NCBI GenBank assembly: GCA_000004985.1 | Contig: GG738865.1 | Strand: one strand, 5' to 3' | Length of the DNA: 64,000 nt | Origin: Naegleria gruberi | Lineage: Eukaryota | In this document: piece after piece, positions 32,797 through 39,311 of the stretch | Position numbering within the stretch: the stretch's first letter is position 1 | How the letters are laid out: each line of letters starts with the position of its first letter | The notes under the pieces: generated by a model | What the model was told of the DNA's origin: nothing | What the model saw: the letters and a program-made list of their open reading frames with translations, nothing else | Database searches by the model: none | Position numbers and translations under genes: made by a program

Positions 32797-33129
32797 ATGC
32801 AGAAGGCCCCTCCTACAAAATATGTTTTTGTAGAACAACCAAATGAACAACAGTTGGAATTATTATTGTCTTCTGATGAAGAAGATTATCAAACTTCGGA
32901 GGAGGATTATGAAGATTATTATGATGATCCGTTGACTGATGATGAATTTGATGATGTAGAATATGATTCTGATGGTTCTGGCAATGATTCCGATCCATCA
33001 GACGATTTTTTGGCACAATTGGGTTTACCAATGGGTTTACCAGCTGGATTAGGGTTACCAATCTTTACTGGTGGTACAATTGGCTCAAACTATCCTCAAA
33101 TCTTCCATTTGGTCCATTTGCATCAATGA
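32797..33129 (+). CDS. Small highly acidic ORF (110 aa). Possibly an independent gene or the 5' part of the downstream gene
   Basis: ATG-initiated D/E/Y-rich ORF ending in TGA that overlaps the ATG of ORF 33126..35327 (ATGA). No clean in-phase intron was found. Confidence 0.3.
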   Translation: MQKAPPTKYVFVEQPNEQQLELLLSSDEEDYQTSEEDYEDYYDDPLTDDEFDDVEYDSDGSGNDSDPSDDFLAQLGLPMGLPAGLGLPIFTGGTIGSNYPQIFHLVHLHQ

Positions 33130-35327
33130 GAGAATTTCAAATGCGTGATTTCTTCTTGTTTACTGATGGATTTTTAAAAAGTTATAAAGGAAACTTAGAA
33201 GAACTCAAACAACAGATTGATAGTAGAAATGGAAGAGTTGTAAATAATGCAGAAGCATTCTTTAGAGTAATATTGCTGTCAAGTATGAGTAGACGATATT
33301 GTGAACAATATGAAAAGTACAAATATCTTATGAGTTTGGGAGAGCAAAAAACTGAAGAAGAATGGAAGAGTTTATGCACTACAGATGAGCTTCAACTGTT
33401 CAAAACAGATTCAAAATCCCCAATGTCACCTTCAAAATTTCAGATGTTGAACGCAACTATATACTTGATTTGCACTGAAGATGAGGCAAGAGCGGCCACT
33501 CCACTGTTTACTATGGTAAATTCGTTTACTGATTTTAGTGACCTACCTCATGCAAATATCTTCGCTGAGAAGGGACTTGAGGCCTATTTGAATAATCCAA
33601 GGTCATTGATGATTCCTAGAATGTTTAAGCTTACCAACCCTATTCCTCTTACAAAACACTATGCCATTATGGCAGAATCTGCTGAAAAGAAAGAAGAAAT
33701 ACGTAAATTTTTACTTCAAAACGGTGCACCACATGTAATTGATAATGTGATGGGACCAGAAATTATACTAGACTATAATTCTTTCTGTGTAGTGTATAGT
33801 GATGCTATACCTGACATTATAGCTCATAATGCAGAAACATTGAATTATGAAGCAATTAGCATTGGTATTACGAGTTCTTTTAATGAATTCTACTCATACT
33901 CCTCTGTTGTTCATGCAGTCAATAGTTTGACCAATATTCCACACTCTCCTTTCGTAGAAAAGTACAGACCTTTGCTATTGAAAAACATACCAATTAAGAG
34001 TTTAGTATTATACTACAGAACCCACAGTAGAAAAATGATACCTGAAGATCAATTCCAACAATTTCCAACAATTTCTCCATCTGAAAGAATATCTACCATC
34101 CTTCCTAATGAAGTATTCTTTGTAATCCTAAAATTTTTACCAGTCAATGATATCATGAATAATTTTTCGATTACCTGTAAAAAAGCAAGGAAAATGAGCT
34201 TTGCAGACTACTTGTGGAAGGATATTTGTCTTGCCTATGCTTCCAATTATCCATTCCTGAAACCATTTACAAAAGAGGAAAATCTGACGAGAACCAAGCT
34301 TCCTCACTATTACATATTCAGAAATATCATTAACCCAATTTTAATTGATTACAAATTGGTCACAAACTATATCAATTCTGTATGTAAGGAAGAGCCAGAT
34401 ATTTTCAAACTCGATGTATTCAATAATACTGTAACAACGGCTCTGTACATGGACAGGTATGGCATAGAAGACTCTGAAATCAGTGTTGGTGCAACTAAAA
34501 TGTTTGGAAGTGCTGATCTGCCGCCATGTCTTTACAACACTAAATATGCCACAACTCCTTTATTGTTACAATTGAATATTACCGATTTGAGATCAAAGGG
34601 TATTGGAATACTTTCATTGGAAAATTCTCCATTCAAACACCTGTTCCCACAATCTGGTATCTTGTACTTCTTTAAAGACATGAGCACAGGAAAATCAGAT
34701 GATGGACTTTTATTGCATTATGATGGTGATTTGAGTGAGTTGAAGAGAACAAACGGACAAGAGTTGGCATCAGCTGTTAATTTCTATGAAGCTTTATGTG
34801 TTCCGAAGAGATCTGAAATGGGTTGGAGTAAATCTATTTCCTTAGCTTCTCTAATCACTCCACGTAATAGAGATTTTATGGATGAGTTTGGTGTCGATGA
34901 TTTTGTTTCACAATTGATTCATGCCAAGTTTATTCGTGAAGATGTAACAAAATTGTTTGGAGAATTGGGCTGTTTTACTGAGGGCGAATGGTATGGTGGT
35001 TTTCATGGTGGTTTTAATGATGATCCAGATGATGAAATTTCTCATTCAAGATGCTTAGATAAGTATGTCGATTTGAGACATATGCTTGCTCCAATCTTCC
35101 AGTTGAGTGGAAAATTTAGTATGGGTAGACGAATGGAAGCAATAGGTTTTGCTGCCCTAGTGAATACGAATGATAGACATGCAATGTGGAAGCCATTGAA
35201 TCCAAATATGCCAAATGTCTACACTTTAGATGAATGTTATTGCTCAGATTTTTTCAATCAGGTACCAGCGAAATTCAGAAAAGCCTTCAAAACACTTATT
35301 AAAGAATTTAAACGTGCAGAGTTTTAA
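33126..35327 (+). CDS. Hypothetical 733-aa protein with an internal F-box-like motif
   Basis: Long ATG-initiated ORF. F-box-like segment ISTILPNEVFFVILKFLPVNDIMNNFSITCKKARKM. No other domain recognised. Confidence 0.55.
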   Translation: MREFQMRDFFLFTDGFLKSYKGNLEELKQQIDSRNGRVVNNAEAFFRVILLSSMSRRYCEQYEKYKYLMSLGEQKTEEEWKSLCTTDELQLFKTDSKSPMSPSKFQMLNATIYLICTEDEARAATPLFTMVNSFTDFSDLPHANIFAEKGLEAYLNNPRSLMIPRMFKLTNPIPLTKHYAIMAESAEKKEEIRKFLLQNGAPHVIDNVMGPEIILDYNSFCVVYSDAIPDIIAHNAETLNYEAISIGITSSFNEFYSYSSVVHAVNSLTNIPHSPFVEKYRPLLLKNIPIKSLVLYYRTHSRKMIPEDQFQQFPTISPSERISTILPNEVFFVILKFLPVNDIMNNFSITCKKARKMSFADYLWKDICLAYASNYPFLKPFTKEENLTRTKLPHYYIFRNIINPILIDYKLVTNYINSVCKEEPDIFKLDVFNNTVTTALYMDRYGIEDSEISVGATKMFGSADLPPCLYNTKYATTPLLLQLNITDLRSKGIGILSLENSPFKHLFPQSGILYFFKDMSTGKSDDGLLLHYDGDLSELKRTNGQELASAVNFYEALCVPKRSEMGWSKSISLASLITPRNRDFMDEFGVDDFVSQLIHAKFIREDVTKLFGELGCFTEGEWYGGFHGGFNDDPDDEISHSRCLDKYVDLRHMLAPIFQLSGKFSMGRRMEAIGFAALVNTNDRHAMWKPLNPNMPNVYTLDECYCSDFFNQVPAKFRKAFKTLIKEFKRAEF

Positions 35328-36016: not shown

Positions 36017-36020
<4 letters not shown>

Positions 36021-37586
36021 ATAGTTGCAAAATTATTGAAACATGTACTAATAAATAACATGATTAATGTTGAAATAATGTAATGGAAATAAGGTGAGGC
36101 AATGTTTGATCCGTTTGGACCCAGAAAGGTTGTAGTTGAATTTTTCGTAGAATTACTACTGGTACTATTGAACCAGTGTGAGCTATTTGATGTTGAATTA
36201 CTGAGACTTGGTGTTGATGGACTTGGTATTGGTGTTGGGATGGGAAGAGGTATTGAACTGTTTGAGTTAATAGTCGTGTTACTATTTGTTAAAGTACAAT
36301 TCGAAGCAGTACAATTGCTTGTTGAGTTGTTTACAGAAATACTTGAATTGCTATTGGTGGTCGAATTACTTGCACCATTATTACTGCTGGTTGTATTAGT
36401 GGTGTTATTCACTGTTGGTGTGTTAGTATTGTTGGAAATGGTGGTTGTATTTGTCGTGTTATTCACTGTTGGTGTGGATAGTGAGCTAGGTGTAACAACA
36501 GAGTAAGATTTTACTCCAACAGAAGGTACAACAGACTTGATGAATGATAGGTAATGAGTGGTGTTTGTATAGACACCCTTATTATTATAGGTTTGAGCCT
36601 CTCCACATCCATCATCTCCATAGCTTGACGAATATTAAGCTTAATGAATCAGTCTTACTTACCTTACAATTCCCAAGACAATAAAATCATTTGAGGAATC
36701 CACTCTGAATAATGGGCCACCACTATCTCCAGCACCTATAAAGGTCAGTAATTATAAGAAATAGAAATAACTTACAAGAGTCATGACCGTTTCCTCCTGC
36801 ACAAATTTGATTTGGAGTAATCATATCAAGCAAAAGACAAACACTGACTGGGTTGACAACAACGTTTGTCTTCATCAACATTGTAGGAAGACTTGTACCA
36901 GTTGTATATCCCCAACCAGATACTGTCAATGATTTAGAACCATCAATTGGATAAGTACCTCCTTCAACCTTAGCCAACTTGACCAATGTTCCATCTACTG
37001 GAATAGATGATTGTAATTCGAGAATAGCAATATCATTTCTTGTAGTTTGCTCATCATAATTTGGATGAACTGTGATAGCCTTTCCTCTATATCTGGTACA
37101 AGTACTACATGTTCTGTCATTGGATCCTGGCAAGATGTAGACAGTCGTTGGATTATCAACAGTTGTTCCACTAACAAAACAGTGAGCTGCACTCAGGACA
37201 AAATTTGGAGCAATCAAAGAACCTCCACAATAGTGTTGCCTTGAAGATGATTGAATTGAGACGAGGAAGGGAAATTCATGGGATGAAGCTTGAGTTCCTC
37301 CAGCAATCTTTGAATCCTTGATTCCTCTCAAAATAATAGAGGCAATAGTCAAGCTTGATGGTCTATAACTTTGCTTGTAGGATTGGAAAGCAGGGGTGAA
37401 GTATCTAGTCAATTCCTTGCTGATTTGTTCCTTCTTATTAATATTGAACAAGGATGAAGCTTGCACACTCCCGATAGGATGATTCATCATTAAAAAAACA
37501 CTCATCACTACAACAACCAAACAAAAGATCCTCATTGGATGGTAGTACCCTTGTGCACTGCACTTTTCAATCCTCAATTTATCCAT
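36017..37586 (-). CDS. Trypsin-like (S1) serine protease with long N/T/S-rich mucin-like stalk and C-terminal hydrophobic tail (membrane/GPI-tethered?); complement(join(36017..36623,36663..36735,36776..37586))
   Basis: Signal peptide. Catalytic triad contexts: His (LSAAHCF), Asp (DIAILEL), Ser (DSC|AGDSGGPLF, completed across a 40-nt intron). GIVS|YGDDGCGEAQTYNNKGVYTNT crosses a 39-nt intron. The 3' exon encodes ~110 aa of T/N/S-rich sequence with an internal duplication (PTVNNTTNTT x2) and ends in the hydrophobic tail YIISTLIMLFISTCF. Confidence 0.8.
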
Positions 37587-37823
37587 TTTTTATGTTATTA
37601 ATTGTATAATGATATTTGTTTGCTTCAGTACAGTGTACTTTTAGGCGCGGGTTTATTGGAAATGATGGAGATTGAGGTCTTTTTTCTTTGAGAATGTTGT
37701 TAAGGCAACCAACACAAACAATGCATAGAGAACTCAGTTTGCAATCTTATCATCAAATAGAATTTAGTTTGAAAGCCGATCTGTACAGTTAAAGTTCCAA
37801 TTAGAATAACAAACACACAAAAA

Positions 37824-39311
37824 ATGATGATACGAGACTTGTTGAGATTTATAATGATTATTGGAGGATTTACCATCCTCTTCTCAATATTTATGCCATT
37901 ATTATTGTTAAAACCTCCTTCAATTTCGGATGGTGGAAAGGGAATCGGAACGAACAGAATTGCTACAAATATTGATATGAATAATCCAGCTTCTGTGAAG
38001 GCAATTTTAAAAGAATACAGAAAGGAACATACTCTTCCCTATTATTTTGATAGATATTTAAAAACTTTAAAAATTGATGATTTATTGGAGGATTATGCCG
38101 AGTTTCATCAAAAGCATAGGAATACCTATTGTTCATCATCGGATCAAAAAAAGGATTTTCCTTCTGTTGGAGTATTAGTATTTAGACCATGGCAAAGCAG
38201 TGGATTGGCCAATGTTATGATTGGTCTTACTTCAAGTTTTTTACTTTCCATACTTTCGGGAAGGTTGTTCTTTATTAATTGGTATGGCCACTATTATTGC
38301 AACATTCATGCCAAATCACTATTCACCAAACCACATGATAAATTTGATTGGTGGTATGAAGACTTTATGAATCCTGATAATGTCAACCAATGTTCAGTCA
38401 ATTATCCTAAATTGAAAATTCCAGGTATTTATGATGATAGCTTGAAAAACTATTATGGAAATATAGAATTAACACACAGAGGAAGAGAATCAGATTACAT
38501 GTTTGAACTTTTAAAATGTTTAAATATTACTGAGGAGTTTGATAATATGGGACCAATAATTGAAGTGACAAGTAATCAATACTATTTACCTCTACTCATT
38601 CAATATAATCCATTCTATCATACATTGTTAAATACCATGTTTCCTGATGCTGACATGTTTGGTCCACTCTCCAGATTTTTATATCATCCTCTTCCTTCTA
38701 TTCAACACAGAGTTGATAAATACCTTACAGACCACAATATTTACATATCCAACACCTTGCTAGGAAACAAGAAACAAGGTAACACTGTCATGTACGGAAT
38801 TCAAATTAGAAGAAACGAAAATGAAAAGCAAATAGACTGGTTTAGAGAAAAACACGAGAAATTCTTTTGGAAAGCTTGTAGAGATGAGCTAATTTCAAAA
38901 CACAACAAAAGATTCCCAAATATGGATTATAAGATTATGGTCATTTCAGATAATGTTACAGTTGTTGAACATGCTAAAAATGAATTCGGACAAAATAGAA
39001 TACTTCATTATGAAGAACAAAAACTAACCTTCTCTCGAGATGGTGAAAGTGTTGTTGGAGCCCTCATTGATTCCTGGCTCTTCAGTCATAGTCATGGATT
39101 TGTTGTGAGTAAGCATTCAACTTTTGGTAATTTGGGACACGGCAGAGCGTCCATAAAACCTTTTATTGTGTACCATTACAATAATGGCGAATCATGCACA
39201 TGGTTCGCTCCTCAAACCAGTGAACCAGAATTCCATTGGTATGGAAGGCATAGGGAAATTACATCATGTAGAGCTGTGGCATTGAAGAGGAAGCGAAAGA
39301 GACAAGATTAG
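37824..39311 (+). CDS. Type II membrane glycosyltransferase, fucosyltransferase-like (GT37/GT11/GT23 superfamily motifs)
   Basis: N-terminal signal anchor. Segment WQSSGLANVMIGLTSSFLLSILSGRLFFINW resembles the GT37 SGLGNRM..FLYALLT..LLVD region. Basic IQIRRNE motif and C-terminal VVSKHSTFGNLGHG (STF motif typical of alpha1,2/1,6-fucosyltransferases). Confidence 0.5.
   Translation: MMIRDLLRFIMIIGGFTILFSIFMPLLLLKPPSISDGGKGIGTNRIATNIDMNNPASVKAILKEYRKEHTLPYYFDRYLKTLKIDDLLEDYAEFHQKHRNTYCSSSDQKKDFPSVGVLVFRPWQSSGLANVMIGLTSSFLLSILSGRLFFINWYGHYYCNIHAKSLFTKPHDKFDWWYEDFMNPDNVNQCSVNYPKLKIPGIYDDSLKNYYGNIELTHRGRESDYMFELLKCLNITEEFDNMGPIIEVTSNQYYLPLLIQYNPFYHTLLNTMFPDADMFGPLSRFLYHPLPSIQHRVDKYLTDHNIYISNTLLGNKKQGNTVMYGIQIRRNENEKQIDWFREKHEKFFWKACRDELISKHNKRFPNMDYKIMVISDNVTVVEHAKNEFGQNRILHYEEQKLTFSRDGESVVGALIDSWLFSHSHGFVVSKHSTFGNLGHGRASIKPFIVYHYNNGESCTWFAPQTSEPEFHWYGRHREITSCRAVALKRKRKRQD

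Follow-up and report, generated by a model that had tools for sequence, protein, structure and literature searches.

The stretch of 64,000 nucleotides (nt) analysed here, hereafter the window, belongs to contig GG738865.1 of the heterolobosean Naegleria gruberi (GenBank assembly GCA_000004985.1). Its minus strand carries, at 36017..37586, a gene encoding a serine protease of the S1 (trypsin) family. The coding region is made of three exons and two introns and contains 496 codons plus the stop codon. From its N-terminus to its C-terminus, the protein (hereafter the query) would comprise a signal peptide, a propeptide, an S1A catalytic domain, a long stalk of low complexity and a hydrophobic tail. 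Taken together, these features indicate that the gene probably encodes a cell-surface, C-terminally tethered serine protease zymogen of N. gruberi with trypsin specificity.

The start codon ATG lies at 37586 and an in-frame TAA is found 6 nt (2 codons) upstream of it. Exon 1 (36776..37586, on the minus strand like all features of this gene) encodes amino acids (aa) 1-270 and the first base of the codon of Cys271, the equivalent of chymotrypsin Cys191. Intron 1 (36736..36775), which is 40 nt long and reads GTAAGT..TACTGAC..TATAG, is inserted in phase 1 within this codon. Exon 2 (36663..36735; 73 nt) codes for C-AGDSGGPLFRVDSSNDFIVLGIV-S and holds the codon of the catalytic Ser275 (36724-36722). 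Intron 2 (36624..36662; 39 nt, GTAAGT...TCAAG) is in phase 2 within the codon of Ser214. Exon 3 (36017..36623) encodes the end of the S1 domain, the stalk and the hydrophobic tail, and finishes with the stop TAA at 36019-36017. Both introns are of the GT-AG type, start with GTAAGT and resemble the three introns of about 45 nt of the adjacent ubiquitin-conjugating-enzyme (UBC) gene. Splicing gives the 496-aa product and restores the S1 motifs DSC|AGDSGGP and IVS|YGDDGCG; without splicing, the frame ends inside intron 1 and forms an open reading frame (ORF) of 287 aa. The alignment with matriptase crosses both splice junctions and is gapped there only by short loop insertions that follow the second junction. 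This continuity, save for these insertions, validates the splice model. After the S1 domain the frame stays open for 168 codons, which has a chance probability of ~4e-6 at the base composition of this 35% GC genome. A tblastn search found no paralogue of the protease elsewhere in the window. The first-pass annotation of this DNA had given the gene exactly the same ends and the introns the same lengths (39 and 40 nt), and its observation of a real and intact gene at this place is confirmed.

The predicted signal peptide (aa 1-43; 37458..37586) was read from the sequence and coincides with a helix over residues 17-34 in the AlphaFold2 (AF2) model, which was built on a 68-sequence alignment. Its h-region IFCLVVVVMSVFLMM (aa 21-35) would be followed by cleavage in the context VQA|SS, and Met18 could be an alternative start. 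The propeptide (aa 44-93; 37308..37457) is devoid of Cys and disordered, with predicted local distance difference test (pLDDT) values below 50 across aa 40-93 of the model, and it ends at the activation site DSK|IAGG. It is at Ile94, the equivalent of matriptase Ile16, that the matriptase alignment begins. Since the mature N-terminus IAGG follows Lys93, the protein can be considered as a zymogen activated by a trypsin-like cut. Judged by its sequence, it appears to possess the corresponding zymogen features, i.e., the DSK|IAGG N-terminus and an Asp (Asp274) just before Ser275.

The S1A catalytic domain (aa 94-328; 36524..37307), which is interrupted by both introns, is recognized by Pfam, by alignment, by AF2 and by Foldseek. 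The full Pfam model PF00089 (Trypsin, positions 1-220) covers aa 94-323 with an E-value of 3.2e-42 and a score of 145.3 bits (cut-off 20.6), and Trypsin is the sole Pfam domain found in the 496-aa protein. The triad His135/Asp185/Ser275 (chymotrypsin His57/Asp102/Ser195; codons of His135 and Asp185 at 37184-37182 and 37034-37032) is found in the contexts AAHC, NDIAIL and GDSGGP, the oxyanion Gly193 corresponds to Gly273, and Asp194 to Asp274 (AGDSGGP, aligned to matriptase). Asp185 and Ser275 are invariant in the 68-sequence alignment, His135 and Gly273 being conserved in at least 90% of it. The complete catalytic domain that had been announced, with triad contexts intact across two micro-introns, is therefore present. 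Furthermore, Asp189, Gly216 and Gly226 of matriptase are found in the query as GHD269SC (codon of Asp269 at 36782-36780), SYG297 and KG311VYT, and the conservation of these three residues predicts a specificity for Arg/Lys. The disulfides Cys42-58, 168-182 and 191-220 all align, and an extra Cys pair (RTC..STC) located in the 70s loop is common to the heterolobosean S1 family. Among PDB sequences, the best matches to the query come from matriptase (E=5e-34), TMPRSS11D and the Fusarium and bovine trypsins, in each case from the catalytic domain. In the same way, the AF2 model, whose pLDDT is mostly >90 over aa 94-335, is matched by Foldseek to matriptase and TMPRSS11D with a TM-score of 0.86-0.89 and a root-mean-square deviation of 2.0-2.4 Å.

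The stalk (aa 329-470; 36098..36523) is about 142 aa long and predicted to be disordered, the mean pLDDT of its 10-residue blocks ranging from 39 to 54 in the AF2 model. It includes 36 Ser, 31 Thr, 29 Asn and 11 Pro and only 2 charged residues; Ser, Thr and Asn make up 68% of it (Ser+Thr 47%, Asn 20%) and Pro 8%. It carries 21 N-x-S/T sequons, compared with 12.5 +/- 2.4 in shuffles preserving its composition, a single one of the 2000 shuffles having reached 21. This excess suggests that the order of the residues, beyond their composition, favours N-glycosylation. A complete N-glycosylation pathway has been described in N. gruberi (PMC4973528). Tandem Repeats Finder detects a tandem repeat in the stalk (36378..36473; 3.5 copies with a period of 27 nt), and an exact 21-nt repeat found at 36476 and 36422, i.e., 54 nt apart, leads to the motif TPTVNNTTNTT being encoded twice, which agrees with the internal duplication noticed previously. 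The first-pass annotation had also described the stalk as a mucin-like sequence of ~110 aa. Its low complexity and its S/T-rich, glycosylation-type composition hold, while its length was underestimated and the term mucin-like is imprecise, as an Asn-rich and sequon-enriched stalk points to N-glycans.

The protein finishes with a hydrophobic tail (aa 471-496; 36020..36097), a candidate glycosylphosphatidylinositol (GPI) attachment signal or transmembrane (TM) anchor, as had been proposed earlier. The segment YIISTLIMLFISTCF lies within aa 472-495, which AF2 predicts as a helix (block-mean pLDDT 68-83). Putative omega sites were scored with a simple home-made heuristic rule. Two candidates are found upstream of the tail, Asn465-Gly-Ser, which is the best one (codon 36115-36113), and Asn468-Ile-Ala; a 15-residue core comes after them. 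The possibility that the tail is an artefact of AT-rich 3' sequence was considered and rejected, as the tail is kept in all complete homologues.

Annotated relatives were identified by a profile search, which also found environmental ORFs. They include P0122 (named 'chymotrypsin') and P0130 from N. gruberi, P0004 (FDP41_012825) and P0125 (FDP41_009595) from N. fowleri, P0002 (C9374_005560) and P0123 from N. lovaniensis, where C9374_000907 is also listed, and P0006, P0124, P0131 and P0171 from Willaertia magna, for which the loci ABK040_008491 and ABK040_006448 are named. The domains of the family share 45-55% identity with that of the query. A neighbour-joining (NJ) tree was built from 229 S1 domains. 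Sixteen of them are of heterolobosean type, coming either from annotated heterolobosean proteins or from unnamed environmental ORFs assigned to this group by their similarity, and they make up a single clade (170/200 bootstraps, 85%) divided into two subclades. The query belongs to subclade A and has no 1:1 annotated orthologue. In every apparently complete member of the family, the signal peptide is followed by a short propeptide, the S1 domain, a conserved linker (FIxxYVxSV..SYS), a stalk of low complexity, which is Ser/Pro-rich, Pro/Cys-rich or sequon-rich depending on the member, and a hydrophobic C-terminus. Four members lacking tails are truncated models or contig-end fragments.

The architecture had been considered as unusual for an amoebozoan. 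Naegleria actually belongs to Heterolobosea (Discoba), and the ORF adjacent to the protease gene is identical to N. gruberi XP_002677707.1; furthermore, the same succession of S1 domain, stalk and tail occurs in every apparently complete homologue from Naegleria, Willaertia and related environmental sequences. The first-pass interpretation is thus partly supported: the architecture was right, the taxon was wrong and the unusual character was overstated within the lineage. Grouping of the domain with a common secreted clade, together with a tail that is not an anchor, had been held to speak against a tether. The S1 domain does group in a lineage-specific clade, but this clade is itself tail-bearing, so the tether reading survives. 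A horizontal origin had also been envisaged. The claim of a horizontal donor was rejected, since the sole environmental sister (P0088) is uninformative and the best identities outside Heterolobosea are scattered over fungi, gammaproteobacteria and animals at 33-44%; the heterolobosean clade may be of vertical or of horizontal origin.

The literature found on Naegleria S1 or trypsin-like proteases is limited to MEROPS family counts, cysteine proteases, cathepsin A and S81, with nothing on the architecture of this family. Some of the annotations of its members deserve comments. The name 'chymotrypsin' given to P0122 is a misnomer, the Asp at position 189 (GHDSCSGDSGGP) predicting a trypsin-like specificity. 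The N. lovaniensis protein P0002 (790 aa) results from a gene model in which two tandem S1 genes have been fused. In N. fowleri, where FDP41_012825 has a tandem S1 neighbour, the same two genes are annotated separately and encode 425 and 335 aa (L003, 3001-6223). Both ends of N. gruberi P0130 seem to be truncated.

Two environmental metagenome contigs carry the same locus. One of them (ENA ERZ929261, from the PRJEB11402 metagenome), which represents a close strain, shows 98.85% identity to the window along 3.3 kb, and its ORF and its two introns are intact. Differences between the two sequences amount to 2/705 nt in the catalytic domain, 3/40 nt in intron 1 and 13/504 nt in the stalk and tail. 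The other contig (L002, ENA ERZ27315067) harbours the UBC, protease and GT37-like fucosyltransferase genes in the same arrangement, which indicates that its protease, P0003, is the positional orthologue of the query. The protease domains are 55% identical and the neighbouring glycosyltransferases (GTs) 76% identical. In the catalytic domain, the proportions of nonsynonymous and synonymous differences (pN and pS) are 0.32 and 0.70, and the ratio of the corresponding substitution rates (dN/dS) is ~0.2 with a saturated dS, i.e., the domain is under purifying selection. The stalk of P0003 is barely alignable with that of the query, yet it contains 21 sequons for 11.2 expected. This contig comes from a second Naegleria-like species, whose GT37 divergence from N. 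gruberi is about that of N. lovaniensis.

The same interval differs in other Heterolobosea. In N. lovaniensis (L005, 4328-6470), only 52 nt separate the UBC and GT37 genes and the protease is missing, whereas the corresponding place in W. magna (L006, 3152-6536) is occupied by an unrelated type I membrane protein of 275 aa, which has an ectodomain rich in Cys, a TM segment and an acidic tail. Either an insertion of the protease copy in the N. gruberi lineage or its loss from N. lovaniensis accounts for this difference. The interval between UBC and GT37 has the appearance of a small turnover hotspot. According to these comparisons, the S1 family is dynamic, and the protease evolves faster than its neighbours.

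The introns of the two tandem N. fowleri genes and of a fish gene (Xyrauchen texanus 'trypsin-like' P0177, L004) were read by eye. Both N. fowleri genes possess an intron at the position and phase of intron 1 of the query (T|GY of Cys191); the Cys191 intron is therefore old within Naegleria. Intron 2 is absent from these paralogues and from P0003, which is encoded by a single intron-free ORF. The N. fowleri paralogues also carry an intron in the codon of Ala56, which is not found in the query. The last intron of the prostasin-like fish gene is in phase 0 between Gln192 and Gly193, i.e., it lies before the exon of Ser195, 5 nt away from the position of intron 1 and in a different phase. In the comparison with metazoan trypsins that had been advised, intron 1 of the query therefore does not match the metazoan trypsin-like gene, in the one fish gene compared. 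The fish protein ends in a hydrophobic tail (SPNLLSLIFSIIPLIFSLYVFS) and is a membrane-anchored protease of the prostasin type.

The protease and the UBC gene, located on the plus strand, are convergent and their stop codons overlap by two bases (TAA at 36018-36020 for UBC, at 36019-36017 for the protease). Each 3' untranslated region must therefore run antisense into the coding region of the other gene. In L002, the two stops are ~30 nt apart. On its other side, the protease gene is separated by a head-to-head intergenic spacer of 237 bp (37587..37823) from NAEGRDRAFT_67047 (37824-39311, plus strand), the gene whose product is XP_002677707.1. This product matches Pfam XG_FTase (GT37, the xyloglucan-fucosyltransferase family) with an E-value of 1e-9, and its N-terminal anchor gives it the look of a type II membrane protein. 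A glycosyltransferase-like gene thus shares a bidirectional spacer with a gene for a protein of the heavily glycosylated type, a pairing that is kept in L002 and not in N. lovaniensis. Further upstream in the window, an intron-free ORF of 733 aa (33126-35327) carries an F-box-like Pfam domain (E=7.5e-7), and the protein collection searched has no exact copy of it. In the same way, an exact look-up in this collection of 15 billion proteins found neither the 496-aa protein, nor its Met18 version, nor the exon-3 ORF, nor the UBC model.

Membrane attachment by the tail can be envisaged in two ways. The tail could be a true type I TM helix that is not replaced by GPI, which would make the query a single-pass protease with essentially no cytoplasmic tail; human tryptase gamma is a single-pass membrane protease of this kind. 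This reading is rather unlikely, although it accounts for the 24 residues of the AF2 helix, for the length of the segment YFHYIISTLIMLFISTCFNNF (~21 residues, enough to span a bilayer), for the six residues (NNFATI) found past the hydrophobic core and for the tails of 20-25 residues of P0123, P0129 and the second N. fowleri gene. However, an uncharged hydrophobic stretch terminates all of the 13 homologues that appear complete. It reaches, or nearly reaches, the C-terminus and typically counts ~15-17 residues, a usual length for GPI signals, whereas TM spans are normally longer. None of the 13 has a charged cytoplasmic tail, and a positively charged stop-transfer flank is missing from the query and from most homologues. 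Moreover, the small-residue triplets NGS and NIA lie at a suitable distance upstream of the tail of the query, and most complete homologues have small-residue omega candidates 7-14 residues upstream of theirs. As a tail of this length that has no stop-transfer flank is GPI-like, a GPI signal rather than a TM anchor is favoured by the sequence comparison.

The query could also be a secreted soluble protease, the tail being a removable pro-segment or retention signal, or lying outside the real protein owing to an extra intron or an earlier polyadenylation. The crowded 3' end, where the protease and UBC stops overlap, and a gene apparently missing from the reference protein set would fit such a situation, which is nevertheless very improbable: the frame is open over 168 codons past the domain at 35% GC (P ~4e-6), it remains open in the second strain despite 13 substitutions, and the tail occurs in 13/13 complete homologues, including those encoded by intron-free single-ORF genes. 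It is barely credible that we are dealing with a young pseudogene, i.e., a paralogue that is decaying or not expressed and is lacking for this reason in the reference annotation. Its apparent absence from the N. gruberi protein set, the empty slot of N. lovaniensis and a stalk dN/dS of ~1 between close strains could be explained in this way. However, the catalytic, disulfide and activation residues, the splice sites, the signal peptide and the tail are all intact, the dN/dS of the catalytic domain is only ~0.2 with respect to the positional orthologue, and the close strains differ by 2 changes in the 705 nt of this domain versus 3 in the 40 nt of intron 1.

Several observations weigh against the interpretation of the query as a GPI-anchored and trypsin-activated surface protease. 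The rule used for omega sites is crude and gives no candidate in the positional orthologue P0003; the NNFATI extension and the 24-residue helix make a type I TM anchor possible; and nothing specific was found in the literature on the GPI machinery or transamidase in Naegleria. GPI anchoring is near-universal among eukaryotes, Discoba included. Of the 13 changes that separate the two close strains in the stalk and tail, 10 are nonsynonymous and 3 synonymous, which suggests that no constraint acts on their sequence. The activation site also varies within the family. Lys or Arg occupies its P1 position in the query, P0003, P0122, P0123, P0125 and P0127, but P1 is not basic in other paralogues, namely P0004/P0002 (SIS|IAGG, NAY|IAGG), the gene located at ~4975 of L003 (NLH|IAGG) and P0006 (VE|ISGG). 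The Ser, Tyr, His or Glu found at P1 indicates that trypsin-like auto-activation is not a rule of the family and that a trypsin-like cut cannot be what activates these paralogues. Finally, the close matches listed include no N. gruberi protein identical or near-identical to the protease, though the adjacent gene is present. Judged by this absence, the protease seems to be missing from the protein set of N. gruberi NEG-M.

For the tethered zymogen, which remains the preferred reading, we infer from sequence features and modelling a heavy N-glycosylation of the stalk, GPI addition, activation, surface location and substrates, and the following succession of events can be proposed. The signal peptide would send the protein into the endoplasmic reticulum. 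The hydrophobic C-terminus would most likely be swapped for GPI at a small-residue site, the best one being Asn465-Gly-Ser; less likely, this segment would be retained and cross the membrane once, leaving hardly any cytoplasmic tail. The disordered stalk of ~140 aa, bearing dense N-glycans, would keep the catalytic domain off the membrane. A cut after Lys93 (DSK|IAGG) would free Ile94, whose pairing with Asp274 (=Asp194) would form the active site, and the Cys-free propeptide would be released after this cleavage. The active enzyme would then cut after Arg or Lys, as predicted from Asp189, Gly216 and Gly226. Prey or surface proteins are plausible substrates.

This organization can be compared to that of several known proteases. 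The closest are the heterolobosean S1A paralogues, which share with the query the clade, the layout, the linker, the extra Cys pair of the 70s loop and Asp189, as well as, for N. fowleri, the Cys191 intron. The query differs from them by its locus, its long Asn-rich stalk packed with sequons, its private intron 2 and its apparent lack of annotation in NEG-M. Prostasin (PRSS8) and testisin (PRSS21), two metazoan GPI-anchored proteases whose catalytic domain is held on the outer face of the plasma membrane, are, like the query, trypsin-fold zymogens having Asp189, and their signal peptide and C-terminal hydrophobic signal of the GPI type have putative counterparts in it. However, the query belongs to a heterolobosean-only clade and shows 30-39% identity to metazoan proteins among the matches listed (36% for the prostasin-like match). 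Metazoan GPI-anchored S1A enzymes have almost no stalk and keep their propeptide disulfide-linked, whereas in the query the propeptide is devoid of Cys and a glycan-type stalk of ~140 aa is present. The best catalytic-domain matches are found among the type II transmembrane serine proteases (TTSPs) such as matriptase/ST14, TMPRSS2, TMPRSS11D and hepsin, which are membrane-tethered and have a trypsin-like specificity. Unlike the query, which has a Trypsin domain only, a propeptide of ~50 aa and a putative C-terminal anchor, TTSPs possess an N-terminal signal anchor and stems made of SEA/CUB/LDLa/SRCR domains. Lastly, the highest identities outside Heterolobosea are found with fungal and bacterial trypsins (Fusarium oxysporum 1try and 1fn8, Streptomyces-type and marine gammaproteobacterial enzymes), reaching 39-44% for proteins of Pleosporales, Sarocladium, Fusarium and Cellvibrionaceae. 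Their solved structures are lone catalytic domains of 224-230 residues and they fall outside the heterolobosean NJ clade. The Fusarium and Streptomyces enzymes are not known to have a stalk or a hydrophobic tail. The best reading is that the query is analogous to, and not orthologous with, prostasin and testisin.

A broader scenario is that heteroloboseans independently assembled GPI-anchored zymogens of trypsin specificity that activate each other at the surface, a protist counterpart of the metazoan matriptase-prostasin cascade. Although this is quite improbable, mutual activation would be possible in such a cascade because most members of the family have Lys or Arg at the activation site. 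As part of the same scenario, the query would be a lineage-restricted copy evolving about twice as fast as its neighbours. The head-to-head GT37-like fucosyltransferase might glycosylate the stalk of the protease, and the protease could have been shaped by an arms race with prey or pathogens.

An apparently unannotated but intact protease gene is thus added to the model genome of N. gruberi. It is a new member of a protist S1A family that is catalogued but uncharacterised, and the anchoring principle is known from animals. For general biology the step is incremental, a known fold having been combined by convergence with an anchoring solution that is also known, and the find is modest and not surprising. 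What most deserves attention is the tethered design, which extends to the whole family, and the homologues from N. fowleri. The trypsin-fold proteases of Naegleria and Willaertia appear, as a family, to be built for C-terminal membrane tethering, which for this fold has hitherto been discussed mainly for animals, and no paper describing this design in them was found in the full-text literature searched. If they are tethered, N. fowleri FDP41_012825 and its tandem neighbour, as well as FDP41_009595, would be surface-exposed Arg/Lys-specific proteases of a lethal pathogen, and would then be candidate targets for inhibitors of the benzamidine or camostat class or for antibodies.

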